The translations under genes and the position numbers were made by a program. The notes under the pieces are model-generated. The model saw only the letters and a program-made list of their open reading frames with translations. It had not been told where the DNA came from and searched no databases. Shown in pieces: positions 10,361 through 33,886 of a stretch of DNA of 43,053 nucleotides. This stretch comes from a virus, in the IMG/VR virus record IMGVR_UViG_3300038829_000108, positions 1 to 43,053 of that record; one strand, 5' to 3'. Position 1 is the first letter of the stretch, and each line of letters starts with the position of its first letter.

Positions 10361-11126
10361 TGTCCCCGCCTTCCCGATCCTCTTTTATTTCTTCAGCCAT
10401 GGTTTTTGCGTCTGCAAGTACATCGCTAAATATCTGTGTTGTATCCAGTGCCTGCAATGCTTCCTGTTCTTTGCGATCTTTTTCAATTTTCGCTTTGAAC
10501 TCGGAGATTTTTTCGGGTGTGTCCACGCCAGCCAACGAGAGCAATTTACCAAACGGAATACTTTTCAAAACTTCGTCCAGGTTCCCGCCCTCAGCGGTCA
10601 AATCAATTTCCGAGCGGTCCTTTAATACACCTGCAAGTTTGAAATGTAATTCGCGGTCATACTTGCCTTTGTAGTTGTCTTGCGCCGCCACGGTATACAT
10701 GGCTTCCAAACTATCTGGCAGACGTTCAATCGCGCTTTTCTTCCAGACCTCCCCCACCATCGCATCAATACCAGGGTTTTTTGCGCGCCACACGCTGAAC
10801 TGACGGTCACTGCTCATGCCAAGTAAATTCGCAAGTTGATCCTGTGTCTTCGGCCAACGGTGCTTCTTCGGCGTCCCCAGCCACATGATCAAAGCGGCAA
10901 CACGGAACGGCCATCGTCCAACGCGCAATGACAAATACAACTCAAATAAATAGGGCGCGATCCTTTTGCCCTGCGGATCAAGCTCCCAGATCGCTCCGCT
11001 CTCAAATTCCTTGCGTGCCACCTCTTCTCGAGTACGAACCTCATCCGCGCTTAAAGCAGAATTAGACTCTTCTTCGGGAAGGTCAAGGTTGAGCATGAGT
11101 TGATACGAAGGAACTGTAATAGGCAT
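10353..11126 (-). CDS. terS: Terminase small subunit (HTH)
   Basis: 257 aa directly upstream of and overlapping terL. HTH region KTQDQLANLLGMSSDRQFSVWR. Confidence 0.7.
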   Translation of the reverse strand: MPITVPSYQLMLNLDLPEEESNSALSADEVRTREEVARKEFESGAIWELDPQGKRIAPYLFELYLSLRVGRWPFRVAALIMWLGTPKKHRWPKTQDQLANLLGMSSDRQFSVWRAKNPGIDAMVGEVWKKSAIERLPDSLEAMYTVAAQDNYKGKYDRELHFKLAGVLKDRSEIDLTAEGGNLDEVLKSIPFGKLLSLAGVDTPEKISEFKAKIEKDRKEQEALQALDTTQIFSDVLADAKTMAEEIKEDREGGDNE

Positions 11127-12774: not shown

Positions 12775-14025
12775 TCAAGCCATTTGTGTTGATAAAAGAA
12801 CTGGCGTTTGTCCGCTGAACTGCGCCCATCTTTCAATCGTCACTGCCGCGTAGATCGTATCCAACTCCACTGCCCTGCATCGCCTCCCGAGTTGCTCACA
12901 GACAATTAAAGTTGTCCCGCTCCCAACAAATGGGTCAATCACTATATCGCCAGGCAAGCTCGAATTATTCAGCGATCTCTCCACCAGCGGAAGCGGCTTC
13001 ATGGTTGGATGATCGTCACTGCGCTTCGGTCTATCTATTTGCCAAACATCTGATTGTTTGCGGTCTGTAACTTCTCGCACTCGTGAAGCGTCGCTTTTCC
13101 ATCCATACCAGAGCGGCTCGAATTGCGTATGATAGTCTTTGCGTGAAAGCACAAGTTGATCCTTCATCCAAATGATCGTACTTGACCAATGGAAGCCTTT
13201 ATCCCTCAAGACCTTGTCAATCACGGGCCACTCCTGCGCGCTCATTGCCAAATAGATCAACGCGCCTGGCTCGCAAGCATTCCAAATACTATTCACTGCC
13301 GCGCGCATGAACTCAGGAAATTTCTCTCCCAAATTATCGTTTTTCATTGTTCGTTTTTTATAACCCTGAGGGTTATCTTTTTCAATGTGCCCGCCATAAT
13401 CCACATTCCATGGCGGATCAGTCCAGCAAATCTGCGCTTTCTCTCCCTGCATCAATTTATCCATCACGCTTTCATCTGTGCAATCTCCAACAAATAACCG
13501 ATGATTTCCCAACGTCCACAATTGACCTTCTTCCACTTTCCATTTCTGAACCAATTCATCGGCTTGATCCATAAGTTCAGCAGGATCGGCGGTTTCCTCC
13601 TGTATATTTGCATCCGCCTGAAGAAGTAACTTCTGCAATTCCTTGTCCAGAAAACCGAGCGAATCAAAATCCAGACCAAGCGCAGCATCCTGCGCGATCA
13701 CATCCGCGTCCCACTCCAAATCAATTTCAGCCACGCGATTATCAAGGTATGCCAATCGTCGCGCCTCACCTGCAGAGTCTTCAAGATCTAAATCCTGACG
13801 CTGAACGACAACGAGTTCATCCCGATTGGTTGGAATGATCCGCACCTTCATTCCCGCCTTCCTCGCCGCCTCCAACGTCTTATTACCAGCAATCACATGC
13901 CCATCTTTATCCACCAGGATGGATCGCCCTGCTCCCAATTCCTTTATGGATTGCTCAAGCAGTTCTCTTCCGCGCCCTGTGCCTTTATTCGCATTGTGAT
14001 TGTCATATTGTAAATTGTCACTCAT
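12775..14025 (-). CDS. ParB-N domain fused to a beta-class DNA methyltransferase (DPPW, likely N6-adenine)
   Basis: ATG at 14025 overlaps the upstream TGA (ATGA) after GGAGGA. The ParB-like N-domain contains GRSILVDKDGHVIAGNKTLEAARKAG. Motif IV is TDPPW and precedes motif I IDPFVGSGTT. Confidence 0.85.
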   Translation of the reverse strand: MSDNLQYDNHNANKGTGRGRELLEQSIKELGAGRSILVDKDGHVIAGNKTLEAARKAGMKVRIIPTNRDELVVVQRQDLDLEDSAGEARRLAYLDNRVAEIDLEWDADVIAQDAALGLDFDSLGFLDKELQKLLLQADANIQEETADPAELMDQADELVQKWKVEEGQLWTLGNHRLFVGDCTDESVMDKLMQGEKAQICWTDPPWNVDYGGHIEKDNPQGYKKRTMKNDNLGEKFPEFMRAAVNSIWNACEPGALIYLAMSAQEWPVIDKVLRDKGFHWSSTIIWMKDQLVLSRKDYHTQFEPLWYGWKSDASRVREVTDRKQSDVWQIDRPKRSDDHPTMKPLPLVERSLNNSSLPGDIVIDPFVGSGTTLIVCEQLGRRCRAVELDTIYAAVTIERWAQFSGQTPVLLSTQMA

Positions 14026-15416
14026 ACATCCTCCGCTAATATCGGGTTTTTGCCCGTCAATAAATACCACCTCTCTAATGTAGCCGCCACATATTTGGGC
14101 AACAGTTCACTGCCATAACAAATTCTGCCCATCACCTCGCAGGCGATCAACGTTGTCCCGCTTCCGCAGAATGGCTCAAAGACGATCTCGCCGCGCTTTG
14201 TATAAAGCATCAAATGACGGATTGGCAACTCCAACGGAAACGCCGCCTCATGTCCGTTTGACCTGGCATTGCCTTTTATATCGTCCCAATATGCGCGCAG
14301 CGCCCACGTTGTTCCCGTCCATTCCTGCCCGCGTTGTTTTCCTTGTTTATGATAAAAAGTCAAAAGACTCTGCACATCGTCTTCGCGCACAGCATCTTCA
14401 AATTTCATCGTCTGACCTTCAGCGTGTTCGTATGTCCCTAAAAATTCACAATGCTGATCTATCACATCCGCCCTGGGCGATGTACTCATCAATTGTCCCT
14501 CCTTCAGCCAATGACGTACATGCCGCAAATTCCAACCGCGAGATCTCAAATCATTTGTCCACTGGTCAATCAATAGCAATACATGCCGCTTTGCCTTCTT
14601 GTCGAATGCGGTTGTAAATCCAGTGCCCGTATTGATCACAATTCTACTTTCGTCTCTCCGCGTTACTGCGTCAATCACGCCGCATATTTGTTCAATGAAT
14701 TCTGAAATCTGTTCTTCGCTCGTCTGTGTTTCATATCCCTTGCCCACCCAATAAGGCGGACTGGTAAAGGTCAAAGCCGCCTTGTCGCTTCCCATCAGAC
14801 GATCCATGTTCCCCATGTCAGTTGCATCTCCGCAGATCAACCGATGGTTTCCCATCTTCCATACCTGTCCCACCTCCACGCCCCATTTGACGGTCAGCTC
14901 GTCGCCCTTTTCGCTCTGGTCACCTGGGTCTTTTCCTGCTTCATCCCCAATTCCAGCCTGATCCAGCAACTGGCGCAACTCCCCCTCGAGGAAACCAACC
15001 CCATCAAGTTCAAGACCTGCCGCCATATCGTCAGCCAATTGCTCTGCATCCCAATTCAAGTCCAATTCACTCACGCGATTATCCATGTATGCCAGGCGTC
15101 GAGCTTCACCAGATGAATCATTCAGATCCAGATCAGTTCGTTGAACAGCGACCAGCTCATCCCGTCCCGCCTGAACGATACGGACTTTCAACCCTGCCTC
15201 CTGCGCCGCATCGAATGTCTTATTGCCAGCGATCAACTTTCCATTCTTATCCAACAGGACAGAACGTCCGCCTCCCAGCTCGCGCACCGACTGAGTCAAA
15301 AGTTTCTTGCCGCGCTCCGTGCCTTTATTGGCATTATGTTCATCGTGAGTGATTTCCCCCTCTCCATTTGTACTCAAATGGGGAGGGGTCAGGGGTGGGG
15401 TCGGGTTATTCGTCAT
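14022..15416 (-). CDS. ParB-N domain fused to a beta-class DNA methyltransferase (SPPY, likely N4-cytosine)
   Basis: The N-domain is paralogous to the downstream gene. Motif IV is TSPPY and motif I is FEPFCGSGTT. The first ~20 codons are encoded by repeat element H. Confidence 0.8.
   Translation of the reverse strand: MTNNPTPPLTPPHLSTNGEGEITHDEHNANKGTERGKKLLTQSVRELGGGRSVLLDKNGKLIAGNKTFDAAQEAGLKVRIVQAGRDELVAVQRTDLDLNDSSGEARRLAYMDNRVSELDLNWDAEQLADDMAAGLELDGVGFLEGELRQLLDQAGIGDEAGKDPGDQSEKGDELTVKWGVEVGQVWKMGNHRLICGDATDMGNMDRLMGSDKAALTFTSPPYWVGKGYETQTSEEQISEFIEQICGVIDAVTRRDESRIVINTGTGFTTAFDKKAKRHVLLLIDQWTNDLRSRGWNLRHVRHWLKEGQLMSTSPRADVIDQHCEFLGTYEHAEGQTMKFEDAVREDDVQSLLTFYHKQGKQRGQEWTGTTWALRAYWDDIKGNARSNGHEAAFPLELPIRHLMLYTKRGEIVFEPFCGSGTTLIACEVMGRICYGSELLPKYVAATLERWYLLTGKNPILAEDV
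15357..15406 (-). repeat. Stem-loop element, copy H (inside the methyltransferase N-terminal codons)
   Basis: CCCCTCTCCATTTG-TACT-CAAATGGGGAGGGG, then TCAGGGGTGGGGTCGGGT. It abuts the TerS-like stop at 15406. Confidence 0.75.
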
Positions 15417-18626: not shown

Positions 18627-19017
18627 CGCGCACCTCCATAACAGTCAACTGCTCACGCTTCCACCAAATAATCTCGAAATCATCTAAATACAACTTTCCT
18701 CGATATGTCTTCAGAAAGAAATTGAAAAACTTATCAACGGCGTCATATTCGCTGCCAAAACCGTCACGCTGCGCAAGTCTTCTTATTTCATCCCTGGACA
18801 GCCACTCAGAAAACTCTGGAGACGTGATCGTCATGATCCGCTTCTGTAATGGAAGGATCAAGATTGATACAACACCAATGCACGGAGCCTCAGCAAATTT
18901 GAAAGCCTTTTTCGTTCGCAAACCTATGTACATCTGGAGTACGTCCCCAACTTTTGTTGGATGTTTCCTCCGCCTCCGAATCGTATGTCGCTTTGACCCA
19001 TCTAATATCATTGGCAC
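18619..19017 (-). CDS. ASCH-domain protein
   Basis: ILDGSKRHTIRRRR motif. The track start is a GTG at 19017; an ATG is at 19011. Confidence 0.5.
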   Translation of the reverse strand: MPMILDGSKRHTIRRRRKHPTKVGDVLQMYIGLRTKKAFKFAEAPCIGVVSILILPLQKRIMTITSPEFSEWLSRDEIRRLAQRDGFGSEYDAVDKFFNFFLKTYRGKLYLDDFEIIWWKREQLTVMEVRDE

Positions 19018-19058
19018 AAATTAACTTTGAAAGTTATACGCTGGCATCATGTACCTCA

Positions 19059-19090
19059 TTCATCCTTCATAATTCACAATTCATCATTCG
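19059..19090. repeat. Heptad-spaced TTCAT repeats (5 units)
   Basis: TTCATCC TTCATAA TTCACAA TTCATCA TTCG with period 7. The core is the same as in the 21974-22317 iterons. Confidence 0.7.
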
Positions 19091-19142
19091 CCACGTCCCC
19101 TCCCCTACACATGCCTGATGTCCATTTCCGCGCCCACACCCA

Positions 19143-19164
19143 GCGCACGCACGCACGCACGTAC
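19143..19164. repeat. 22-nt alternating purine-pyrimidine tract, mostly (GCAC)n
   Basis: GCGCACGCACGCACGCACGTAC, a Z-DNA-prone composition. Confidence 0.7.
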
Positions 19165-19178
19165 AAAGCGGGGGATTA

Positions 19179-19207
19179 TTGGCGGTTAAATTCATTTTGG
19201 CGGTTAA
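19179..19207. repeat. Two direct copies of TTGGCGGTTAA spaced 18 bp start to start
   Basis: 19179-19189 and 19197-19207, 5 nt downstream of the RHH gene stop. Confidence 0.75.
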
Positions 19208-19211
19208 GAAT

Positions 19212-19487
19212 TCAACTAATCCATGTATCAATGGCATCTTCCAAAGCCTTCACCGCTTCATCGGAATTCTTCGCGCCAGCTTCAACCGCAGCCTGTACTC
19301 CGCTCCCCAACTCCCCATTCAACGCAGATACCAACAACGCCCAAGCCATCGGAGCAGCTTTCTTTTTTTTATTCATCTCAACTACCCAATCCACAGCTTT
19401 CTGCACACGCGGATCAGTAATCGGTTGCGCTACTCTCACATTCAACTCCATGCGCCGCGACGGAATAATATTTTTATGTCTCGCCAT
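19212..19487 (-). CDS. Ribbon-helix-helix-like protein, ParR-like candidate (91 aa)
   Basis: The N-terminal RRMELNVRV strand followed by the helix DPRVQKAVDWVVEM resembles an RHH fold. It lies directly downstream of the ParM-like gene. Confidence 0.4.
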   Translation of the reverse strand: MARHKNIIPSRRMELNVRVAQPITDPRVQKAVDWVVEMNKKKKAAPMAWALLVSALNGELGSGVQAAVEAGAKNSDEAVKALEDAIDTWIS

Positions 19488-19524
19488 CTGATCTCCAAAT
19501 CAAATCCGTTTCACAATCCGTCGA

Positions 19525-20523
19525 CTACTTCATTCGTAGTGCCGCCTTATACAACCCGCGGCTGATTGGCATAATCGGATCGTCGAAAAACACAGCACGC
19601 CCATTGAATTTCTCGGTCAAATGGTTTCGCAATAAGATCGCGCCGCCGCCAACTACAAAGACTTTTGCAAAACGCTCCCACTCCTCACCGCGCCATTTCT
19701 CATTCAAAAAGCGATCAACCTCAGTCCACCACGCATCGAGAAACGGATTTACGCTGAACTGCTCAGGCAACTCGTCCGATTGTAGTAACTCGCTCCATTC
19801 CCCAAAATAATAGCGGTCATGCGGATCAGAAACAGATTTCAACCAGCGCACCCCAATCGGCTTACCGCCGCAATAACGACGTGTATCAATATCCTTCCAC
19901 GTCACCTGTGTTTCGACAGTTGACGAACCAATTGAAATAGCGCCATTCTCGCGCTTCATTACCTGCGCCCTTGCATCGTCAATTGGGTTCCCATCCATTC
20001 CAAAGACATAATCCGTCTGCACGCCAAAAGCCTGCGGGGCAAGCCCAACCTTCACAATCGTCGCGGACATATTTGTCCCGTCCGCCAGCCACTCATGCAA
20101 CCCGCCAATCCAACCCTTAATCTGGCGATTCCATTTATCAACCTGCCCTTTATCTCCATCCAACAATTGATATGGCAAACCAACTACTACCTCAATCGGC
20201 TCTGAATAATCCACGCCAAATTTGCGCTGATATGCCGTCAATGCCCCCGCTAAAATTGCACGCATCTCAATGGTGGCATTCGTCAATTGATCCATCGAAA
20301 AGTTTTCCAACGGTTGAATTCCCGCGCGGTGTGCATTATGACCAACGAACAATTCATGTCCATCCATCTCAACCAGCATCGGTCGATTTTTCTTCGAGCG
20401 GCTTACCAACTCCGCGCTATTCCCGCCAGGCAGCGCCGCCAGACTTGGAAACAAAATGCTTCCAGCCACGCCTGTTATCTTTACTGACGAACGTCCCATA
20501 TCCACACCAAGTTTTATATTCAT
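19525..20523 (-). CDS. Actin-fold ParM/StbA-like ATPase
   Basis: Actin-fold motif series: GVDMGRSSVK (phosphate 1), VVVGLP, AISIGSSTVE (phosphate 2), VFVVGGGA (adenosine). Confidence 0.6.
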   Translation of the reverse strand: MNIKLGVDMGRSSVKITGVAGSILFPSLAALPGGNSAELVSRSKKNRPMLVEMDGHELFVGHNAHRAGIQPLENFSMDQLTNATIEMRAILAGALTAYQRKFGVDYSEPIEVVVGLPYQLLDGDKGQVDKWNRQIKGWIGGLHEWLADGTNMSATIVKVGLAPQAFGVQTDYVFGMDGNPIDDARAQVMKRENGAISIGSSTVETQVTWKDIDTRRYCGGKPIGVRWLKSVSDPHDRYYFGEWSELLQSDELPEQFSVNPFLDAWWTEVDRFLNEKWRGEEWERFAKVFVVGGGAILLRNHLTEKFNGRAVFFDDPIMPISRGLYKAALRMK

Positions 20524-20553
20524 GTCATTTCTCCTTTTATATGTTTTGAATTT

Positions 20554-21222
20554 TTACTTACTATCCAACGAACCTTCCATCACCGCTCTGCCTTCTTCGG
20601 TCAACTCAAACCCCTGCCTCTGATCCTTCTCGCTTCGCGGCTTGAGCAATCCCCTGGCTAACATAACTGACCTCAACAGCTTTATCTCTGCCACGGAAAA
20701 CGGTTTACCACCTCCAGACCACGCCCCCTCAGTAAAAGGAATCCCGTTCAACAAACCCTCCGCCAATTTCCGCAACTGGCTATCCGTACATGGCAAACTG
20801 ATCAAGTCCACCTGCAAACTGCCTCCTTCTTTGATGTGATTGACCTGCACCTTCACCAGACGCGGCTCTGTTCTGTGCGAAGTTGAAGACTCAACCACTC
20901 CATCCCCATTCAGATCGCGCTGCATAACCTTTTCCGCAGTCAATACCAGCCAGCGCCGTTGCAGGAATAGCCACGAGAAAAAAGGCATCACTCCGAAAAT
21001 AACCAATGCCACCTTCCATCCACTTGACCATTCAAACACCCATGACAGGATCAATACACCGAACGCAAGAAGTCCGCTTGTGATCATGGCTTGTAACAGC
21101 GGCACCACCACCCCTGCATTCTGGGTGTGCAAAAACTGACGGTCTGAATAGTGAAGCGTCTCCTGTGGATAAGCTGGGGCAGATTGCGCTTGTGTAACTT
21201 GTGTTTTCTCAAATGTGCTCAT
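20554..21222 (-). CDS. Membrane protein with a cytoplasmic winged-helix-like C-terminal domain (222 aa)
   Basis: Two or three TM segments, then the GIPFTEGAWSGGGKPFSVAEIKLLRSVMLARGLL region. Its start is coupled to the upstream stop. Confidence 0.6.
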   Translation of the reverse strand: MSTFEKTQVTQAQSAPAYPQETLHYSDRQFLHTQNAGVVVPLLQAMITSGLLAFGVLILSWVFEWSSGWKVALVIFGVMPFFSWLFLQRRWLVLTAEKVMQRDLNGDGVVESSTSHRTEPRLVKVQVNHIKEGGSLQVDLISLPCTDSQLRKLAEGLLNGIPFTEGAWSGGGKPFSVAEIKLLRSVMLARGLLKPRSEKDQRQGFELTEEGRAVMEGSLDSK

Positions 21223-21845
21223 TTCTCCTCCGCATCGATGATCAACGGTTGCACCATCGCCACACCCGTCGGATCATTGCTTTTACTTGCGGCGCTTGCC
21301 AAAACTCCAACGTGCCGAATCGCTCCTGCAGTCTGTATCATCAATCTGTCAGGTTCGTTGCGCGTGTTGAGCAAGAGCGTCGTATTCGTATTCGGGTCCG
21401 TCAGCGAAACGATCCCTTTACCCGCATATTCAAGCACCAACGGATATTGACCAGTTGACTTATCCAAATAAATAAGTTGCGCCTTCACCATCGCCGCGCG
21501 CGCCACCGCTTTCCCACTCCCATAAATGGCAATGCTTCCGCTTGCGCCAACAGACAGGATCACGATCACCAGCGAGATAGTAATGGCGATCCCGCTCCAA
21601 TATGTGACCATCTCCATCGCATGTTTTTTATTCTCAAGCGCCGCATCTTTCACTTCCTGCTCCCGCTCTGCATTCTGGATCGCAATCTCATCCAGCTTGA
21701 TCTGCTGCTCACGCGTGCGGGTCGCATCCATCGCTTGTTGCTCCGCTTCGATATGCATCACATCCGCCTTGGCAACATCCTTCGGGTTTGGCGCACAGCC
21801 AGCCAATGCCAGGGAAACCAATAATACAAATAGAACCTTTTTCAT
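21219..21845 (-). CDS. Lipoprotein with a coiled coil and an internal TM segment (208 aa)
   Basis: ATG at 21845 follows GGAGG. MKKVLFVLLVSLALAGC matches a lipobox. Confidence 0.65.
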   Translation of the reverse strand: MKKVLFVLLVSLALAGCAPNPKDVAKADVMHIEAEQQAMDATRTREQQIKLDEIAIQNAEREQEVKDAALENKKHAMEMVTYWSGIAITISLVIVILSVGASGSIAIYGSGKAVARAAMVKAQLIYLDKSTGQYPLVLEYAGKGIVSLTDPNTNTTLLLNTRNEPDRLMIQTAGAIRHVGVLASAASKSNDPTGVAMVQPLIIDAEEK

Positions 21846-21856
21846 TGTGCCTCCAT

Positions 21857-21952
21857 TCATTGAAAAAATATCAAATACAGAGCCAGTCCGCTAAAAAAAC
21901 ACGCACCAATCATCAACACCAACGTAATCAAATACAATTTTCTATCGTCCAT
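21857..21952 (-). CDS. Small hydrophobic protein (31 aa, below the ORF-track cutoff)
   Basis: AAGGAG lies 8 nt upstream of the ATG. The sequence is MDDRKLYLITLVLMIGACFFSGLALYLIFFQ. Confidence 0.5.
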   Translation of the reverse strand: MDDRKLYLITLVLMIGACFFSGLALYLIFFQ

Positions 21953-21973
21953 CTTATAAAATCTCCTTTCTCG

Positions 21974-22317
21974 ATGAACCAAATGAACCTAGTTAATGAA
22001 CCTGACCGTCATTCCGCTTCATTTTCACTTCATAAACTCACTGCCGTAATAGGCGATGTTTTCAAAAAACGATTAAATATCTTTACTTCATAAAGGTTCA
22101 TAAGGTTCATTAAATATGCGCTCGGATTGGTTTTCACCCCACCCAAAACGCCTCCACGCCAGTCAAAAACCAATTTAATGAAGCAAATGAACCTTTATGA
22201 ACCTAAAAACAGGGTTCCGTACCGTTCATTTGAAAAAAAATCGCGCATATTTTTTCCTAATGCCGTATGCCCCCCTTTTTGCTTCATAAGCTTCATAAGG
22301 TTCATTAATCCATTCAT
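21974..22317. repeat. Iteron array: about 17 copies of ATGAA(C/G)C / G(G/C)TTCAT in alternating oriented triplets
   Basis: Plus-strand ATGAACC at 21974, 21983, 21996, 22187 and 22197; ATGAAGC at 22178. Inverted copies (G/C)(G/C)TTCAT at 22016, 22028, 22086, 22095, 22104, 22223, 22281, 22290, 22299 and 22311. Spacing within clusters is 9-13 bp. Confidence 0.85.
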
Positions 22318-25300
22318 TACTTTTCGTCTCCATCTTGATAATCTTCCATCCATTGCGCGTTGGCAGATGGAACATAATCATCCAATCTCGCCTGCGCTGG
22401 CTCAGACGCAACTGGTTCAGCCTCGTCCTCGCTCTTATAGTTCGGGTTGTAATCATTTTCTAAATCCAACCCCAGCCGCATTCGCGCAATATCCAAACGC
22501 TTCCTTTCCAAAACTACCGCAAACCCGCCCCCTGCGCTTCCAGCACGCTCCACGGGCAGCCGAAATGCCTCGTGACAAACTTTGCCCGCTGTCTGGCTCT
22601 GCGTTTTCTTGCGTCGCTTTTTTTCTTCCTCGGTTTCATCAATACTCTCAAGATCGAAAAACTCATTCAAAATCTTCGCCAGATCTTTATACAAAATGTA
22701 GCGCACTACCCCGTGCTTGCCCAATTTTCCGAACTTCACTAAATTCTTATATCCGCTCACTTTCTGTGCGTAGATCGGGCTTGCCTTCGGCTTGATTCCA
22801 TCCTCCAAATCCTTTGCAATTTCCGCCGCCAGCGCCGCGCGCAAAACCATCGCCTCAAATGAACCCGATAACTCAATCAATTGATCTTCAAAATTTGCCC
22901 GTCCGATCACAAACAGATCGTTGAATAAATCCATATCTTTTTGTTTGATCGCCATCACCTTTACCGCGCGAAATAATTGATTCGTGCGCGCATCCACCAG
23001 CACATCATTTAATTTATGTGTTGCGCGTTCTTCCTTTGTTAACTCAATCCGTGGCATCCATGTTTCCAATCGCCACCGCAGGCATATATTCCGAATCCCC
23101 TCAGCCTCTTCCTCCAACTCAGGCGGATAATATCCAGGCTCATATCCATCTCTATCGAGCGTAATCATGTCAGTCTTTGTCAAATAAAAAGTCATGAAGC
23201 GGCTTTCAAGCCCTTTATCTTTCGTGGGCTTATAACCAGTCGCCATTGTCGGACCATAAATCGGCGTGTTCGCAGGGATAAAAGTTTTTCCGTTTGGCGT
23301 CATCACTTCCATCATCTTGAATGAATGTGCCATGCGACGCATCGGACGCGCCTTCATATAGCCCGCCAGTGTCCCATCGTCCCGCTGAAGCGCGGAGTCA
23401 TACTCATCAATCATGTCAGTCGCGTGATAAATTTTTGCCAGCCCCTCATGTGATTTCGCCGTAGTAGTGGCAGCCGTCACTGCGAACCGATAAGAAGTCA
23501 GTCCCACCAAATACATCAAATCAGATTTACCGCTTCCAGCAGGCCCCAAACAGCGCAGCATATTGATCGTATCGAAACAATCGTACACATGCGTATTGAC
23601 TGACCACACCGCGCTGAATTTGAAAACGCTTTTATCTTCGGCATAAAAGAATTTCTTGTAAAACTCGGCATTCATTTGGATGATCTCAGCCGTTGTGTGC
23701 TTCTCTCCCACCCGTGACGGGAACTTGATCGCGGAAGAGTGGAACTCGATTTCCTCTTGTATCGTCTGGTCGTATGCAGGCGGAATCAAAATCTTATTTT
23801 CCAGCGTCAGAGTCTTCCCCCATCCAATCTCTCGCTCATCATTCTTGATGCTCTTGATATGCGCCCATGCCAGCCGCAATTTCTGCGCCTCGCGGTCGTA
23901 ATACATCTCTACCAAATGCCCGCTGTCTTTATTATCGCGGTTCTGAAACCATCCCCCGTATGTTTCAATTTCAGGAAGCCCATCTTCGCTATCGCCAGCC
24001 TCAGCCGCAACCTTCACCTCAGCCCGCAGCCATTTGTTGTATGCAGTAGCAGCCTCCGCCTTTGAAACATTTGGATAGATCGCAAGCGATAAATCCCGTG
24101 ACAAATTCACCCGTTGCGTTTCTGGGATTGAAAGAATCATCGGGCGCACGATCTTATCTATCATCTGATTCCGCGCATGACCGCCCAACGACCCCGCATG
24201 TCGCGCCGCCAGCACCACAATCCGCTCCGCCCTCATCGGAATTTCATTCACCAGCGCATACCCATCAGTTTTATCTGCCTTTGTATCACGGATAAACTGC
24301 GCGATGTCATTCACGTCCTTGAGGGTTTTCTGCTTTCCGTCTGGACGCATCCATTCTTTTTTCGGTGTCCGACCCACCCACAACATCGCCCCCAGCGCGT
24401 TGGACAATTCGAATTTATTATCGCGTCCCGTTACTACCTTTTCCCCTGCCGCGTCCGCATCGGTCACGTAAATAAATTCCTCATAATCATTCAGCCAATC
24501 ATCCACCTCTCCGTTCTCGACCAAATGTTCCCACGAGGAACCACATAACCCGACAGCAGGCAAACCGAATTGTTCGTATGTTTTCGAATCGCCCTGCCCT
24601 TCCACAACATAAAGCAACGCGCCTTTTTCCTGACCCTCCAAATGATGATGACGATACAACGAATTCCGAAATGCGCGGCGCTTGCCGATCAAACCCTCAT
24701 TCGGGTTGCGACTTTTCCGCTCCTCATCGAACCCAGGCAGAATTCGCCCGCTCAAATACTCGATTCGCCCATCGAACTTATGCGCGTACACCAGCGCAGG
24801 TTTATCCATCAACCCACTGACGTAATTCTTAGAAAAACTATGCGGATCAAGACCCCGCGACGTTGCCCACTCTGCGACATTCCCCTGAAACCCCAATATC
24901 ACTACCGCCTCTGGTGAGAGCAGATCAACTCCGTGCATTTTCAACTCTTCGCGCATTTCCTTCTTTTCAGCAACAGTAGCCCGCCCGCTAAAGCCAAGCG
25001 TCCCGCCGTTTTGAATCGTCCCCAACTCCCACCCACGATCCAGCGCGTAATTCAACGCACCCTCATCGCCAGCGCGAACAACTTTCCCGTCCTTGTCAGT
25101 TGTCCCCAACAGCCAGCGGCGCATGACATCCATTGCCACGCGATACGCGCCCTGTTTTGCCTGCGCTGCCTTTCGTTCAGGCATCGATGCAGTAGCAGGA
25201 AGCAGATCAATTCCAGCCCGTTGCGCTAAATTTCGCAAAGCCTCATCAAAATCCCACCCTGGATTTTTCTTCATCACCCAATCAAACTGACTCCCGCCGT

Positions 25301-25508
25301 CATTGCATGAACCGAAGCATTTCCAACGCCATCCTCCCTTATGGTTCGGAGGATACACAACCAATGACCGATTATTCTTATCGTTGTGAAACGGGCAAAA
25401 TCCAACCCACCCCCGCCCGCTCTTCTTCAACTTAACCGAAGCGATTTCATTCACCAGTTCGGATAAATCCACTTGCGCTTTGATGTCGTCAACAATTGTC
25501 ATTTTCAC
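22317..25508 (-). CDS. DnaG-type primase (CHC2 Zn finger + Toprim) fused to a P-loop helicase
   Basis: CPFHNDKNNRSLVVY...CFGSC zinc finger, VVEGQGD Toprim, GPAGSGKSD Walker A. The GTG at 25508 or the ATG at 25502 could be the start. Confidence 0.85.
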   Translation of the reverse strand: MKMTIVDDIKAQVDLSELVNEIASVKLKKSGRGWVGFCPFHNDKNNRSLVVYPPNHKGGWRWKCFGSCNDGGSQFDWVMKKNPGWDFDEALRNLAQRAGIDLLPATASMPERKAAQAKQGAYRVAMDVMRRWLLGTTDKDGKVVRAGDEGALNYALDRGWELGTIQNGGTLGFSGRATVAEKKEMREELKMHGVDLLSPEAVVILGFQGNVAEWATSRGLDPHSFSKNYVSGLMDKPALVYAHKFDGRIEYLSGRILPGFDEERKSRNPNEGLIGKRRAFRNSLYRHHHLEGQEKGALLYVVEGQGDSKTYEQFGLPAVGLCGSSWEHLVENGEVDDWLNDYEEFIYVTDADAAGEKVVTGRDNKFELSNALGAMLWVGRTPKKEWMRPDGKQKTLKDVNDIAQFIRDTKADKTDGYALVNEIPMRAERIVVLAARHAGSLGGHARNQMIDKIVRPMILSIPETQRVNLSRDLSLAIYPNVSKAEAATAYNKWLRAEVKVAAEAGDSEDGLPEIETYGGWFQNRDNKDSGHLVEMYYDREAQKLRLAWAHIKSIKNDEREIGWGKTLTLENKILIPPAYDQTIQEEIEFHSSAIKFPSRVGEKHTTAEIIQMNAEFYKKFFYAEDKSVFKFSAVWSVNTHVYDCFDTINMLRCLGPAGSGKSDLMYLVGLTSYRFAVTAATTTAKSHEGLAKIYHATDMIDEYDSALQRDDGTLAGYMKARPMRRMAHSFKMMEVMTPNGKTFIPANTPIYGPTMATGYKPTKDKGLESRFMTFYLTKTDMITLDRDGYEPGYYPPELEEEAEGIRNICLRWRLETWMPRIELTKEERATHKLNDVLVDARTNQLFRAVKVMAIKQKDMDLFNDLFVIGRANFEDQLIELSGSFEAMVLRAALAAEIAKDLEDGIKPKASPIYAQKVSGYKNLVKFGKLGKHGVVRYILYKDLAKILNEFFDLESIDETEEEKKRRKKTQSQTAGKVCHEAFRLPVERAGSAGGGFAVVLERKRLDIARMRLGLDLENDYNPNYKSEDEAEPVASEPAQARLDDYVPSANAQWMEDYQDGDEK

Positions 25509-25646
25509 CGCTCACACCATTCAGATTTTTTCAAACCGTCCACACACCATTTCTTACAACATGTTCAGAATTTTCGAGCCGCTTACCGAGCCACCCACCA
25601 TAAAAAAAAAGAAGTGACCGACCCCACCCCCTCCCCTTGCCTGTTC

Positions 25647-25683
25647 ATGCAACATAACCCCATGTTATGTTGCATCCTTTTTT
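25647..25683 (+). terminator. Plus-strand rho-independent terminator-like hairpin preceded by a C-rich tract
   Basis: ATGCAACATAAC-CCCAT-GTTATGTTGCAT followed by CC TTTTTT. The upstream tract ACCGACCCCACCCCCTCCCC resembles an inverted tail of the repeat family. Confidence 0.5.
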
Positions 25684-25791
25684 GACCGCCACGAACCTTT
25701 TCTACACAGCGCACGCGCCCATTGCAAAACGCAAGGGAAAAGGGAAGTTCTCGATTCTTTCTACTACTGCAATAAGAGTGAAGGACTGACA

Positions 25792-26034
25792 TTAACACTG
25801 ACCCAGCCTCTCCAACGCCACGCGGACTTGGTGTCCTATCTCACTCACACACTTGACCACCTCATCCATCTCCACCTGTGCAGGGGACAGTAGCGCATCC
25901 AATCCAGTGCGGTCACGTGCCTGCTGTATCCGTACCTGCGTGAGCGGGACCGTATGCTTGATTACTGCCAACTCAGCGCCTATTGTTTCCAGCGCCGCGC
26001 GGATCTCCGTGTCCCGCTTGTTTGCCCTACTCAT
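25792..26034 (-). CDS. Hypothetical protein (80 aa)
   Basis: ATG with a purine-rich upstream region; helical sequence. Confidence 0.55.
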   Translation of the reverse strand: MSRANKRDTEIRAALETIGAELAVIKHTVPLTQVRIQQARDRTGLDALLSPAQVEMDEVVKCVSEIGHQVRVALERLGQC

Positions 26035-26510: not shown

Positions 26511-27074
26511 TTACTCGACCTTGCCGTCGTACATGTGCTTGCGCTCTTCCGTGATTTGCGCTTCAAACCATTTCCTGATCTCAGCCATCGGAATAGTGAT
26601 ACCCTTATGAGGAGCCTTGGCAATAAACGCCCACTTGAATTCTTGATGTAATATCCATGCCAATGACCAGCATACGCCATCAAAACAGCCTGTTTTTTGA
26701 CCTGAATAACCAAGGCTGTTCAAATACCACTGACAAACATTGAGAGCCAAATCTGCGGGACCAGAGCCGCCATAGCCAAACTCAAACCCGCCTGGCGAAT
26801 GATGAACGACCAGGTGCGGCACATTCGTGCGAACAATGGCGTGATCGTTATCACCATCTCTCTGCAAAACTAATGCCTGATTGAGAGATATGTGACCTTC
26901 AATATATGTATCCTCGAATTCTTGTTTCTTGCATTCATCTTTCATTGTTCCTCCATGGCCTCTACAAATGAGACCCATACCAGCCTCCACCGATTTTGGA
27001 TTGCTCAATGGCTTTTTACACCGAGAGCAATAACTTATTCGACTCGCGCCGAAAAAAGACAATTGTTGAAGCAT
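26511..27074 (-). CDS. DUF6011-like zinc-ribbon N-terminus plus conserved GYGGSGPADLA domain protein
   Basis: CSRCKKPLSNPKSVEAGMGLIC and HSPGGFEFGYGGSGPADLALN motifs. The ATG overlaps the upstream TGA (TGATG). Confidence 0.6.
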   Translation of the reverse strand: MLQQLSFFGASRISYCSRCKKPLSNPKSVEAGMGLICRGHGGTMKDECKKQEFEDTYIEGHISLNQALVLQRDGDNDHAIVRTNVPHLVVHHSPGGFEFGYGGSGPADLALNVCQWYLNSLGYSGQKTGCFDGVCWSLAWILHQEFKWAFIAKAPHKGITIPMAEIRKWFEAQITEERKHMYDGKVE

Positions 27075-28048
27075 CACTTCCTGCCTTTCTTTTTCATCAC
27101 CTTCTCGATATTGCGCTCTTTCTTCTCGTACTCATCGGCAAAGCCCGTGAGTTCATTTCGCATTCCTTCTTCCGTCAATTTCACTTGCTCCCATTGATAG
27201 GGGTCAATCAACTCTGTAATCCCTTCTCGCACAAGCGTTGCCAACGTGCGCGGCTCAACAGCATCCAATTCCCATGACGATTCGCCGAATTGATCTGCAT
27301 AAGCCTGGTATCGGCTGTCTGTTTCCTTCGCGGGATTTTCGGGCGGATTCCATTGCTCGACCTGGTCATAATTCAAAGCCAGCCGATGGATTTGGATAAA
27401 GTCCTCCACTTCATATCCCCTTTCTTCAATCCAATTCTTCAGCCCCGAAAACATCACCAGACGCTCTGTGATGTCTCGCGTCATATCAATCCCACTCGGA
27501 TCATGGTCGCCAAAATAGAAGATGTGGATTTGATTTACAACCTTATCTTGATCTCGCAAGACTTTATAAAGTCGCTTCCCAGCCTCGTACATTGCCGATG
27601 ATGATGAGTAGCCTTTGTTCGCTGTAAATCGAACATGCAGCTCTCTGCAAACTGGCTCCAAAATGCCGCTCAATGCGTCCTTCTCGACCATCACTTCCGC
27701 GTACATCGTTTGACCCTGCCACCGATCCACGCGGAATTGATTCGCCGCAGCTCGCACGATCTCCGCAGGTGACGTCCACGCCACAGGGATGGTCGTCTCA
27801 CGTCCGCGATCCTCGATCATGCCCCAATCAATCAGACCAGCCAAACGCGCATCGCTGATCAAGTTCCCAACCCGCTTGTACGACTTGACCGTGTTCTCGA
27901 TGTAATCCCTTGCTACCAACTGGTAATACAACTGGCGCAGGCTCAGGCGATAACCCTGCGCTCGATATTCGCTCAGAATGCCATTCGCAGTTTCGATCAG
28001 CTTCATGCTCTCTGCATTGAATCTATGGTCAATAAATTTCTCTTTCAT
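27074..28048 (-). CDS. Topoisomerase VI-A / Spo11-like protein (5Y-CAP + Toprim), Mini-A type
   Basis: LSLRQLYYQLVARDY (candidate catalytic Tyr), MVEKDALSGIL (Toprim Glu), FYFGDHDPSGIDM (DxD). Confidence 0.65.
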   Translation of the reverse strand: MKEKFIDHRFNAESMKLIETANGILSEYRAQGYRLSLRQLYYQLVARDYIENTVKSYKRVGNLISDARLAGLIDWGMIEDRGRETTIPVAWTSPAEIVRAAANQFRVDRWQGQTMYAEVMVEKDALSGILEPVCRELHVRFTANKGYSSSSAMYEAGKRLYKVLRDQDKVVNQIHIFYFGDHDPSGIDMTRDITERLVMFSGLKNWIEERGYEVEDFIQIHRLALNYDQVEQWNPPENPAKETDSRYQAYADQFGESSWELDAVEPRTLATLVREGITELIDPYQWEQVKLTEEGMRNELTGFADEYEKKERNIEKVMKKKGRK

Positions 28049-28356
28049 TGCCCATCTCCCTTGTCATCTAGGAGTTTCAACACGAATTTCAATTCCTGCT
28101 TGCCCGTTTCCAATTTCAATTGAATCAGCGCAAGCGGTGCGTTTTCAAACACAGTCGCAACTGGATAATGCCCGCGTTCGTCCTCTTCATACGCCGCCAG
28201 CCGCTCCGCAATCAGTTTTTTATTGATCGCCAACATACGCTCGCGCCGAAGAATTTCCTCAGCTGCGATTGTTCGCGCTTTCGGGGTGTTCGCTTCTCCG
28301 TCGCGCACTATTTCCAGCAATTTGCTAATCATAAGATTTTGGAGTCTGCCGCTCAT
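28045..28356 (-). CDS. Hypothetical protein (103 aa)
   Basis: ATG at 28356 overlaps the integrase TGA. GGAGG RBS. Confidence 0.6.
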   Translation of the reverse strand: MSGRLQNLMISKLLEIVRDGEANTPKARTIAAEEILRRERMLAINKKLIAERLAAYEEDERGHYPVATVFENAPLALIQLKLETGKQELKFVLKLLDDKGDGQ

Positions 28357-29306
28357 CACATCACCTCCAACGCCGCGCGGACTTGGCTATCCCGCACGCC
28401 GAAATACAAATCTGTCGTCTTCACATCCGCATGGCGCATTTGCCTGCGGACTGCGTTCCTGCGCGCCATCTCTGGCACGCCGATTTTCGACAAAGCATCG
28501 TTATATGCGTAAGCGAACGTATGCCGTAGATCATGCGGCTTCAAATCCACAACGTTTCCAGCCGCGCCAATCATCTTGATTCTGCGCCACACTGTACCGC
28601 GCGTAATACGTTGCCCATTCCAATCAGTGACAACCGCCTGCGCTTCAATCCCCCGCATCGTGAGCCATTCGGAAATTTCATTCATCGCCTCGGCGCTTAT
28701 ATCAATCGTCTCTTTTTTTGCGCCCTTGCCATACACGCTGATTTTGTTCGAGACAAAATCCAGGTCTGAAACATCCAACCCTGCGACCTCGCTCTCGCGC
28801 AACCCCGCGCTATTGAACAAGATCCAAATTGCTCTGTCGCGCAGTCCAAGCCATAAATGATTTTCTGTCTGATATTTCAGATGTGATCCCGCCCCAACGA
28901 CCGCATTCAACTTCTCCATCTCCGTCCCCGACCTATCACGCGGACTCGGCTCCACAGGCTGACGTCTGACCGATATAGTCGGGTCATATTCAAGCATCCC
29001 TGCTTCCACTGCCCAATGCACCAGCACGCGCATACTGGCAAGCCTGCGGTTGCGGCTGGCTGGCTTCACTGCTTTATCTGCATCCTGTCCCGCAAAATAC
29101 TTTTTCACATCCGTCGCATTGAGTTGATCGGGCGAAAATGAACTCGCATTCTCACGGTGAAAGAACTCAGAGAAATGACGCAAATCCTGCATATATGCGC
29201 TGATCGTTATTTCAACGCGGTCATGCTCGCGCAGCCAAAATTTGAAATCATCCATCCAATGAGATGTCGAAACTTCCAACTGGGTAATATCAATTTGAGG
29301 AAACAT
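28356..29306 (-). CDS. Tyrosine recombinase (XerC/D / phage integrase family)
   Basis: GLRESE (Arg), HDLRHT (His-x-x-Arg), RHADVKTTDLYFG (His and catalytic Tyr). Confidence 0.85.
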   Translation of the reverse strand: MFPQIDITQLEVSTSHWMDDFKFWLREHDRVEITISAYMQDLRHFSEFFHRENASSFSPDQLNATDVKKYFAGQDADKAVKPASRNRRLASMRVLVHWAVEAGMLEYDPTISVRRQPVEPSPRDRSGTEMEKLNAVVGAGSHLKYQTENHLWLGLRDRAIWILFNSAGLRESEVAGLDVSDLDFVSNKISVYGKGAKKETIDISAEAMNEISEWLTMRGIEAQAVVTDWNGQRITRGTVWRRIKMIGAAGNVVDLKPHDLRHTFAYAYNDALSKIGVPEMARRNAVRRQMRHADVKTTDLYFGVRDSQVRAALEVM

Positions 29307-32185: not shown

Positions 32186-33886
32186 ATGCCCCACCTCCCT
32201 CCGCCTTCCACCCTCCCACCAGGCTCCATCGTAGACGCCTACGTCCGCGACTCTGGCGGTCCGCGCCAGGATGCCTCCACCGACCAGCAAATCGCCGAAA
32301 TCGAAAAATACTGCCAAACATACGGCCTCACCCTCCGTCACAAATTTGCAGACGTTGCCAAATCGGGAGGCTCCACATCCACACGCGACGAATTCAACAA
32401 CCTCATAGACTCCACCCGCCGCGTCGAAGATCGCCCTGCAGGTGTGCTCCTCTGGAACTACGCCCGCTTCGCCCGCGACCTCGACGATGCCATCTACTAC
32501 AAAGCCCTCCTCCGCAATCGCAGCATCATCGTCCACTCCCTCACCGACCCAATCCCAGAAGGCCAGTACGGGCGCATCATCGAATTTTTTATAGACATCT
32601 CCAACGAGGAAAAACGCCGCCAAACCTCCACCGATGCCAAACGCGGACTGCGTGATCTCGTCCTCAAACATGGCTGCATCCCTGGCACACCCCCGCGCGG
32701 CTTCAAACGCGAACCCGTTGAGATTGGACTGCGGCGCGACGGCTCACCCCACATCGCCCACCGCTGGGTTCCCGATCCCGATGTTGTCCCCCGCATCCAA
32801 CGTGCTTTCACCATGCGTGCCAGCGGATCAACCCTCGCCCAAGTCCACGCCGAAACAAAAATCTTTACCTCTCTCAATTCCTACAAAACCTTCTTCGCCA
32901 ACCGCATCTTTATCGGTATCCTCGAATTCGGCGACCTGGTCATAGAAAATTATTGTGAACCGCTCGTAGATATGCAGACCTGGAACACCGTCCAAAAAAT
33001 AATCCGCGACTACGCCCAGGCCCGCACATCCGAACGCCACCCGCGCCGCGTCGATTCAGCCTACCTTTTATCTGGTCTTGTTTTCTGTGATTGTTGCGGC
33101 TCCCCAATGTTCGGCAACACCGCCACTCGTCACCACATCACAGGTCGTGACGAAGCCTACCGTTGTTCAGCCGCCCGCCGAAAACGCGAATGCGCCGCCA
33201 GTCGCATCCCCCGCCGTAAACTTGAGGATGCCGTTTTCGCCACCCTGCATGATCACATCCTTCTGCCAGACAGCCTCTCCGCAATGCTCGAAGTCGAACG
33301 TCACGCCACCGATCACCGCGAAACAAAACGTACAGAACGCCTGGCAATTCTTAACGTCGAAAAGAAAAAGCTCTCAACCCAAATCGTCAATATCACCCGC
33401 GCCATAGCCGAACGCGGGCACTCATCCACCCTCCTTGACAAGCTGACCGAACTCGAAGCCCAGCGCGCAATGGTCCTGACCGAATTTACAGAACTCAACA
33501 ACCTGCGCTTTGTAGCTTCCCCGCCGCTCACCGAAGAAGAGATCATCATTGTCTCGAACATGCTCTCTGACATTCTTCACGAAGCCCCCGCCGAGCAAGT
33601 CAAACAAATACTTCAATCCTTCATCCACAAAATACTCGCCAAAAAAACAAACGGACAGATCACAGGCTCCATCACCTACTTCACCCCGCCGCTAGCCGAT
33701 CTGCTGCGTAGCAGTCCGCCCGATTCGCCCCCTTTTGAATCCCCCCCCACGGGTAATACAATGTTGCCTATAAGTTCCCGCTCCGTGGGGGCACACCTCT
33801 ATAGGCAAATATTCAGCCATCCTATTATTTCACCAAAAAAAGCCGCTCAGAAGAGCGGCTTTTTTGATCCCTACTCTCGCTCATAG
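32186..33886 (+). CDS. Large serine recombinase (integrase type)
   Basis: Resolvase catalytic region AYVRDSGGPRQDASTDQQ, recombinase domain, zinc ribbon CDCCGSPMFG...YRCSAARRKRECA, coiled coil. A ~70-aa low-complexity C-terminal tail follows. Confidence 0.85.
   Translation: MPHLPPPSTLPPGSIVDAYVRDSGGPRQDASTDQQIAEIEKYCQTYGLTLRHKFADVAKSGGSTSTRDEFNNLIDSTRRVEDRPAGVLLWNYARFARDLDDAIYYKALLRNRSIIVHSLTDPIPEGQYGRIIEFFIDISNEEKRRQTSTDAKRGLRDLVLKHGCIPGTPPRGFKREPVEIGLRRDGSPHIAHRWVPDPDVVPRIQRAFTMRASGSTLAQVHAETKIFTSLNSYKTFFANRIFIGILEFGDLVIENYCEPLVDMQTWNTVQKIIRDYAQARTSERHPRRVDSAYLLSGLVFCDCCGSPMFGNTATRHHITGRDEAYRCSAARRKRECAASRIPRRKLEDAVFATLHDHILLPDSLSAMLEVERHATDHRETKRTERLAILNVEKKKLSTQIVNITRAIAERGHSSTLLDKLTELEAQRAMVLTEFTELNNLRFVASPPLTEEEIIIVSNMLSDILHEAPAEQVKQILQSFIHKILAKKTNGQITGSITYFTPPLADLLRSSPPDSPPFESPPTGNTMLPISSRSVGAHLYRQIFSHPIISPKKAAQKSGFFDPYSRS
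33744..33808. other. Interleaved 9-bp inverted repeats, candidate attP core
   Basis: CCCCCACGG (33744-52) pairs with CCGTGGGGG (33783-91). TTGCCTATA (33764-72) pairs with TATAGGCAA (33800-08). Confidence 0.4.
33835..33865. terminator. Bidirectional rho-independent terminator
   Basis: AAAAAAA-GCCGCTC-AGAA-GAGCGGC-TTTTTT. It lies 5 nt after the minus-strand gene stop and inside the last 52 nt of the serine recombinase ORF. Confidence 0.85.

Follow-up and report, generated by a model that had tools for sequence, protein, structure and literature searches.

Staphylococcus aureus pathogenicity islands (SaPIs) carry 6–12 penta- or hexanucleotide iterons directly downstream of rep; these iterons lie around a central AT-rich region, run in opposite directions on each side of it, and are read by the winged helix of the self-loading protein Rep or PriRep (PMC9371898). 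The alpha protein of P4 has a three-domain layout consisting of a DnaG-type primase, a superfamily 3 (SF3) helicase, and a winged helix (PMC2777425); the analogy with it drawn below is based on PMC2777425 and PMC4234260. We analyzed a viral DNA of 43,053 nt (IMG/VR record IMGVR_UViG_3300038829_000108, positions 1–43,053; hereafter, the window), in which a dense array of short repeats fills the gap between a primase-helicase gene and a downstream operon containing an actin-like ATPase gene. The original prediction had read this array as either an iteron origin or a parC-type centromere. The first of these readings stood, and the second did not. The array was tied to the primase-helicase gene in every relative examined and covaried with the predicted C-terminal winged helix of the encoded protein, which has the fold of self-loading initiator helicases. 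It is quite probably the replication origin of the phage, of the SaPI Rep or P4 alpha type, which would be bound by the self-loading primase-helicase.

The exact word ATGAACC/GGTTCAT was found 16 times across the window, and 9 of these copies were located within 21974–22305. Shuffled sequences gave an expectation of 5.7 copies for the whole window, and none of the 100 shuffles reached 16. The shorter core ATGAA/TTCAT, with a background of 3.4 per kb, occurred 16 times in 21974–22317 (344 bp) versus about 1.0 expected (Poisson P of about 3e-14), confirming the array described in the original prediction. The "about 17" copies counted there correspond to these 16 cores plus one degenerate GGTTCC at 22213. 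The core-to-core spacings within clusters were 9, 13, 11, 10, 9, 9, 10, 9, 9, and 12 bp, and the orientation alternated from cluster to cluster, both in agreement with the earlier description (9–13 bp). The iteron units were 9–10 bp long with a core of 5–7 bp, occurred in both orientations, and in the window were a mixture of ATGAAC and ATGAAG. A second iteron cluster was not found in the window by a position weight matrix (PWM) built from the copies or by a k-mer cluster scan. Read along the coding (minus) strand, the array and its downstream boundary consist of the following elements, in this order:

22279–22321, minus strand: iteron cluster I, four forward copies (plus-strand TTCAT cores at 22313, 22301, 22292, and 22283)
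22232–22257, no strand assigned: A-run/T-run inverted repeat GGAAAAAATATGCGCGATTTTTTTTC between clusters I and II (from the sequence and hairpin z-scores)
22213–22233, no strand assigned: extra forward iteron (core at 22225) and the degenerate GGTTCC, found in the window only and not conserved in relatives (alignment A1)
22174–22206, minus strand: iteron cluster II, three reverse copies converging on cluster I (plus-strand ATGAA cores at 22178, 22187, and 22197)
22115–22173, no strand assigned: G+C-richer spacer, not conserved in the window (alignment A1 and relatives)
22083–22114, minus strand: iteron cluster III, three forward copies (plus-strand TTCAT cores at 22106, 22097, and 22087)
22060–22086, minus strand: conserved AT-rich box GTAAAGATATTTAATCGTTTTTTGAAA, kept across subfamilies using different iterons
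21970–22037, minus strand: iteron cluster IV, two forward and then three reverse copies (plus-strand TTCAT at 22029 and 22018; ATGAA at 21996, 21983, and 21974)
21857–21968, minus strand: ribosome-binding site AAAGGAG (21962–21968) and a small hydrophobic open reading frame (ORF) of 31 aa, the first gene of the downstream operon

As had been predicted, the array overlaps the primase stop codon: the iteron TAATGAAT, which is the first copy of cluster I, opens with TAA at 22317–22319. The gap is non-coding and filled by the array, also as predicted; its length was corrected from 344 bp to 364 bp (21953–22316), because ATG 21952, with AAAGGAG 9 nt upstream, is the most likely start of the next gene. 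The start given for this gene in the ORF list, TTG 21982, falls within an iteron. Cluster IV runs up to this ribosome-binding site. The 31-aa product is probably a membrane protein, and its ORF is the boundary of the array, not part of it. Cluster I was kept in alignment A1 and in all relatives. Cluster III was the best-conserved block, with TTAATGAACCTTATGAA invariant in the three closest genomes and a period of 9 bp determined by TRF.

The protein database contained 207 relatives of the primase-helicase, and their DNA contexts were collected by a genome-collection scan, viral-contig scans, a metagenome scan, and look-ups of exact proteins. In all of the approximately 35 distinct contigs obtained (primase-helicase 26–76% identical), an iteron array began at or inside the stop codon of the primase-helicase gene, and the same four-cluster order, the AT-rich inverted repeat, and the conserved box were present. 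The order in these relatives was three direct copies, the AT-rich inverted repeat, three inverted copies, a spacer of about 45–60 bp, three direct copies, the conserved box, the last cluster, and the ribosome-binding site of the next gene. In alignment A1 of the three closest genomes, the iterons and the box were invariant and the spacers had diverged. In many relatives, the primase-helicase ORF ended in the TGA of the first iteron ATGAGG (L008, 9992–9994; L009, 10028–10030). Because the stop codons sit within the first iteron (22317–22324 in the window; also L008 and L009), the coding sequence and the putative origin appear to overlap by design.

The loci L045 and L046 were considered as exceptions lacking an array after the primase and were rejected as such: the tblastn match had merged separate pieces, and an ATGAAG array was present at L045 3210–3700. 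In L045 (232–4288), the protein match was split around the array, and in L045/L046 the AT-rich palindrome had a large insertion bearing its own inverted repeats. The primase-helicase gene of L014 contained an in-frame TGA (9332–9334) about 190 codons ahead of its end. The products of the downstream 31-, 213-, and 222-aa ORFs were rejected as readers of the iterons, as they were not conserved in the relatives that keep the array. A DNA similarity search with 19000–26000 gave no match in phage or plasmid collections, and in a protein search of the phage collection, similarity to the primase was N-terminal only, with no cultured phage having the full-length protein.

The gene attached to the array and the part of it encoding the putative DNA-reading domain are as follows:

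22317–25508, minus strand: primase-helicase gene, 1063 aa (Pfam, NCBIfam, AlphaFold2, Foldseek)
22473–22691, minus strand: recognition helix SQTAGKVCHEAF (residues 971–982) with the beta hairpin and wing PVERAGSAGGG (985–995) (AlphaFold2 model)

The N-terminus of the protein matched the DnaG-type CHC2 zinc ribbon (PF01807, 2e-17), with a weak Toprim match and a partial match to TIGR01391 (dnaG). The domain order was CHC2 zinc ribbon, Toprim, a beta-rich domain, an AAA+ SF3/MCM-like core, a helical lid, and a predicted C-terminal winged helix. The core contained the Walker A motif GPAGSGKS (655–662) and the Walker B motif MIDEYD (699–704), and the AlphaFold2 model of residues 500–860 (predicted local distance difference test score, pLDDT, 88) comprised the beta-rich domain followed by the AAA+ core. 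A Foldseek search with this region matched, with a probability of about 1.0 and E values from 7e-7 to 3e-4, MCM/CMG, NrS-1, papillomavirus E1, SV40 large T antigen, the African swine fever virus primase-helicase, and SaPI PriRep5/PriRep1, and the matches included 7ola and 7pds. The model places the enzyme in the fold class of origin-recognizing, self-loading helicases. The model of the last 240 residues (824–1063; pLDDT 86) consisted of the helical lid followed by an H-H-H-beta-wing-beta topology, with helices at 940–954, 960–965, and 971–982 (SQTAGKVCHEAF), strands at 986–988 and 996–999, and the wing at 989–995. The predicted topology, together with the covariation described below, suggests that the C-terminal domain is a winged helix.

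The iteron word differed between lineages. It was ATGAAC in the clade of the window and several others, ATGAGG or ATGAAG in the clade with 39% identity, GTGAAC/GTGAAG in L006, L060, L062, and L063, and AGTGRYGA in L007. Alignment of the C-terminal domain across the loci revealed that the last residue of the wing motif P-V-x-R-x-[G/S] covaried with the first base of the iteron. With this motif (Gly in 29 loci and Ser in one), the iterons began with A (ATGA) in 30 of 30 loci, and with a motif ending in Asn, they began with G (GTGA) in 5 of 5. The corresponding residue in the window is Gly990 (22539–22541). In a neighbor-joining tree of the helicase part only, Asn arose four independent times (L060; L063; L007; L006 with L062). 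It is very unlikely that four switches would coincide by chance on a tree with about 65 branches (approximately 1 in 10^5 to 10^6, as a rough estimate and not a formal test). For three further proteins, the motif was used to predict the iteron type in advance of reading the DNA, and all three predictions were correct (GTG for P0045 and P0067, and ATG for P0068, which is closely related to P0067 at 69% identity). From this covariation and the modeled topology, we infer that the winged helix at the C-terminus of the primase-helicase reads the iterons.

The wing of the window protein and P0002 contained a three-residue insertion, AGSAGGG (22524–22556, residues 985–995), typical of the clade with 39% identity (AGSKGGG) and absent from the closest relatives of these two proteins. 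Together with the mixed iteron words of the window, this insertion may mean that the C-terminal domain is recombinant.

Either of two AT-rich segments of the gap may be the site of DNA opening: the A/T inverted repeat at 22232–22257 or the low-stability box at 22060–22086. The inverted repeat between clusters I and II gave a hairpin z-score versus shuffles of −1.95 in the window and −3.8, −5.5, and −3.5 in L004, L009, and L060, respectively. Most clades of relatives had a stronger AT-rich palindrome at this place, of the form ATTTGTTTTGTA-loop-TACAAAACAAAT. The box at 22060–22086 was the least stable duplex of the gap; the nearest-neighbor free energy of 22072–22102 was −31.7 kcal/mol (window mean, −43.2; standard deviation, 3.7), making it the fourth weakest 30-mer in the genome. 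Across the relatives, the box had the form AGGTAaaTTAArGgTTTTTaTTTG. Its conservation even between clades with different iterons suggests that it is recognized not by the winged helix but by something else, for instance RNA polymerase, a host protein, or the body of the helicase. In many relatives, the spacer between clusters II and III contained a TTGTCTGACAA-type palindrome (10133–10150 in L010, 9104–9118 in L011, 3372–3386 in L012, and 10271–10283 and 10413–10425 in L060), which suggests a site for another dimeric protein; it was absent from the spacer of the window (22115–22173).

Origin activity, along with DNA binding, melting, and helicase loading, is suggested by analogy with the systems introduced above. 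In the proposed mechanism, the 1063-aa protein would combine a DnaG-type primase, an AAA+ SF3/MCM-like helicase, and the C-terminal winged helix in one chain. The winged helix would bind the iterons of 5–7 bp ((T)TATGAAC/G), which follow one another at intervals of about one helical turn. Convergent clusters (I versus II; III versus the reverse copies of IV) would place helicase rings on either side of AT-rich DNA, which would open at 22232–22257 or 22060–22086. The helicase would then load itself, encircling single strands, and the fused primase domain would lay down the first primers. The promoter-proximal half, in which clusters III and IV surround the box, may allow the primase-helicase to control the downstream operon as well.

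The likeness to the origins of SaPIs and other phage-inducible chromosomal islands is extensive. In those elements, short iterons (5–6 nt) lie directly 3′ of the initiator ORF, as do the 16 cores here, the first of them in the stop codon. At least two opposed iterons stand on each side of an AT-rich center, comparable to clusters I (four copies) and II (three copies) on 22232–22257 and to cluster III and the reverse copies of cluster IV on 22060–22086. The initiator is a hexameric AAA+ SF3-type helicase (matched here at the level of fold) with a C-terminal winged helix (here predicted), which in SaPI5 is fused to a primase, and the iteron sequence varies between elements to match the cognate protein. 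The fold matches of the window helicase core to 7ola and 7pds are a further likeness. The window protein has no detectable sequence homology to that family; about twice the length of those initiators, it includes a primase of the DnaG zinc-ribbon/Toprim type. The window array is two-lobed, with four clusters over about 340 bp and a second conserved AT-rich box, and relatives have the extra palindrome. Its carrier is a temperate tailed phage, not a satellite.

P4 alpha likewise combines a DnaG/Toprim primase, an SF3 helicase (SF3-like here), and a C-terminal winged helix (here predicted) in one polypeptide. Its winged helix binds short repeats at the origin, which are of octamer scale and in both orientations, and two repeat regions are needed in cis. 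The two regions of P4, ori and crr, are about 4.5 kb apart, whereas the lobes in the window are about 190 bp apart in one gap, and no distant crr-like site was found by the PWM and k-mer scans. The P4 alpha winged helix 1KA8 was absent from the PDB sequence and fold match lists, and P4-family or D5 helicase domains gave no Pfam or NCBIfam match in the window protein. Papillomavirus E1 and SV40 large T antigen are also AAA+ SF3 helicase initiators matching the window core in fold, and at their origins inverted sites of pentanucleotide scale flank AT-rich or palindromic DNA and direct head-to-head hexamers, a layout that can be likened to the window array. Unlike the window protein, they have origin-binding domains that are N-terminal to the helicase and are not winged helices, they lack a fused primase, and they come from eukaryotic viruses. 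Rep_3/RepA iteron-plasmid origins differ in having direct iterons of 17–22 bp, DnaA boxes, and a dedicated Rep gene, whereas the window units are 9–10 bp long and in both orientations; no Rep_3-type family match was found among the ORFs searched around the array. By analogy, the array most likely functions like a SaPI or P4 alpha origin without sequence homology to either family. The proposed origin is of a known kind, found here in an uncharacterized phage family, and differs by its two-lobed layout, its zinc-ribbon primase with an MCM/SF3-like core, and its location in a tailed temperate phage.

Several results weigh against this assignment. Searches with phmmer and with a profile against PDB matched DnaG zinc-ribbon and primase chains only; outside the primase zinc ribbon, they detected no sequence homology to either SaPI Rep or P4 alpha. 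For the C-terminal domain, Foldseek yielded nothing significant (best E, 0.16 in PDB and 0.024 in BFVD); the weak top matches were mostly winged-helix origin or centromere binders (Orc1/Cdc6–DNA, TubR, plasmid Rep, and MarR/SarA). In L039, ATGA and GTGA copies occurred together although the wing residue was Gly. A search of 21953–22316 for DnaA boxes with up to one mismatch found none, which removes one classical mark of an origin and is expected because the initiator is proposed to be self-loading. GC skew showed no inflection at the array and was monotonic over the genome, a result that is uninformative because nearly all genes are on one strand. The box at 22060–22086 could also be a promoter or host-factor site, not an unwinding element.

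This last possibility is taken further in an alternative that divides the gap into a two-part control hub. Lobe 1 (clusters I and II with the AT palindrome) would serve helicase loading, and lobe 2 (clusters III and IV with the box) would be a promoter or host-factor site occupied by the tail of the primase-helicase, with the single wing residue (Gly/Asn) acting as a recognition code for the first iteron base. We regard this combination as tentative and rather unlikely. If true, it would couple origin firing to the expression of the downstream segregation cassette, which is either the actin-like ATPase with its small partner or an FtsK/SpoIIIE-like ATPase with a membrane helix-turn-helix (HTH) protein.

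Purely transcriptional control, in which the iterons are operators for the tail of the primase-helicase or another regulator, with the A/T repeat as the terminator of the primase transcript and the origin at some other place, is improbable. The array does lie between two co-directional operons. In the clade with 39% identity, clusters III and IV flank a box with the sequence TTTAAA-17 nt-TATAnA, whose promoter-like reading is a visual impression only, and the segment separating clusters I and II holds a hairpin with a T-run after it. However, the stems of this hairpin are almost pure A-T, and consensus scans of the gap in the window and in L009 found neither an intrinsic terminator nor a sigma-70 promoter; the original prediction had likewise noted no convincing sigma70 promoter in the array. 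The sole match in L016 was one promoter-like site on the opposite strand, no more than in shuffles. Moreover, the covarying protein is an AAA+ SF3/MCM-like helicase with a primase, and in each studied case (SaPI Rep, P4 alpha, E1, and large T antigen) the origin is where such a protein binds. The genome scans found neither a further iteron cluster nor another candidate for the origin. Origin function and transcriptional control are compatible, and the array may have both roles; the alternative judged here is only the version in which it is not an origin.

A parC-type centromere, in which the small protein p91 binds the iterons to segregate a plasmid-like prophage and the operon promoter lies between two iteron blocks, like that of R1 parC, is very improbable. 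The genes and the element relevant to this reading are as follows:

19525–20523, minus strand: actin-like ATPase (ALP; ALP_N PF17989, 5e-15; phrog_691, "partition protein")
19212–19487, minus strand: p91, an ORF of 91 aa following the actin-like gene
about 19020–19211 (plus-strand coordinates), read on the minus strand just 3′ of the p91 stop at 19212: conserved non-coding element of the ALP-p91 module, about 190 nt (from relatives)

On the minus strand, the gene order is primase-helicase (25508..22317), the gap, the 31-, 213-, and 222-aa ORFs, ALP, p91, a 132-aa ORF, and DUF5131. The array heads an operon with an actin-like gene, its clusters III and IV flank an AT-rich box, and the genome is circular (128-nt terminal overlap) and encodes an Xer-like tyrosine recombinase, all of which favor a centromere. 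The layout also resembles the type II system R1 parC/ParR/ParM, in which two blocks of repeats spaced about 10 bp apart flank an AT-rich, promoter-like segment upstream of an actin-like ATPase operon. However, the window array proved to be independent of the actin-like module. An ALP hidden Markov model found the gene downstream of the array in 17 loci, and at least seven loci (L002, L006, L011–L014, and L047) kept the array unchanged with no ALP or p91 within the flank of 6–7 kb; the iterons of L002 were nearly identical to those of the window. Unlike in R1, the iterons covary with the primase-helicase and not with p91: they follow the primase, because L010 has the closest ALP and p91 (54–55% identity) but a primase with 39% identity and the iteron ATGAAG. 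Three variable ORFs and a distance of 1.4 kb separate the array from the downstream ALP gene. No ParR, ribbon-helix-helix (RHH), or other family match was obtained for p91 or its alignment A5 in Pfam, NCBIfam, PHROG functions, and PDB, and the RHH label originally given to the small partner protein was confirmed by no family or structure search.

The ALP-p91 module instead has its own repeat element, which contains two TTAACCGCCAA repeats, a CTCCCC box, GCGTGCGCTSGG, TGGACATC, GGGGAGGGG, and then a 7-bp tandem repeat at 19058–19089; its C-rich and G-rich boxes are able to pair. All 15 loci bearing the module had the element, a check of ALP-less loci did not find it, and its repeats changed to GGTTGTTA/TAACAACC exactly in the loci with divergent p91. 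Rfam gave no match for this element and no family match anywhere in the window. The pattern of conservation suggests that this element is a better candidate for the centromere or operator of p91 than the iteron array; it may instead be a structured RNA. The weak ATGAA-like tandem repeat at 19058–19089 was considered as a second iteron site and rejected: it travels with the ALP-p91 module, and it keeps ATGAAG in L009, where the origin iterons are ATGAGG.

In L002 (9519–12400), L011 (10899–13018), L013 (12012–14447), and L047 (10758–12942), an FtsK/SpoIIIE-like ATPase was found in the ALP slot after the array, followed in L011, L013, and L047 by a membrane protein whose C-terminus weakly matched an HTH. 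Because these ALP-less relatives hold the FtsK/SpoIIIE-like ATPase at the ALP position, two alternative DNA-handling cassettes appear to occupy one slot after the array.

A packaging (pac) site bound by the small terminase, as in P1 pac, is almost certainly not the explanation: short repeats in two-sided clusters are reminiscent of some pac sites, a likeness backed by no tool result, but the array lies at a distance of about 11 kb from the genes for the terminase (8819–11126), is always attached to the primase-helicase gene, and covaries with its product.

The assignment of the array as an origin, together with its initiator, would apply to a widespread family of temperate phages of about 40 kb known only from metagenomes. 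The natural iteron variants and the Gly/Asn wing change, which arose four times, provide a testable rule of protein–DNA recognition for self-loading helicases. The idea of the array as a centromere is corrected, and a different conserved element, 3′ of p91, becomes the better candidate for the actin-like system. We consider the finding solid and useful and not surprising to a replication specialist; the Gly/Asn–A/G switch and the alternating downstream cassettes are its most interesting parts. The host is probably a member of Chloroflexota, because L002 is on a contig of a Chloroflexi metagenome-assembled genome and the nearest cellular relatives of the zinc ribbon are Chloroflexi DnaG proteins. 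To our knowledge, few genetic tools are available for Chloroflexota, and replicating vectors for this group might be built from the small cassette of initiator and putative origin.

The first 128 nt of the window recur at 42926–43053, and because of this terminal repeat the contig is a closed circle of about 42.9 kb, representing a complete phage genome or phage-plasmid. Its other features are as follows:

4.6–10.4 kb: head and packaging genes
8819–11126: terminase genes
12775–15416, early region: pair of neighboring genes for ParB-like/DNA-methyltransferase fusions (phrog_498)
about 30 kb down to about 17 kb, minus strand: early/replication block
32186–33886: serine integrase
34–43 kb, minus strand: large ORFs, one weakly matching a tail spike protein

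At 27074–29306, a match to phrog_6247 ("DNA topoisomerase," 9e-109) was located near the Xer-like tyrosine recombinase, with a 104-aa ORF between them. This topoisomerase-like/Xer-like pair, which is additional to the serine integrase, was conserved upstream of the primase-helicase in many relatives.

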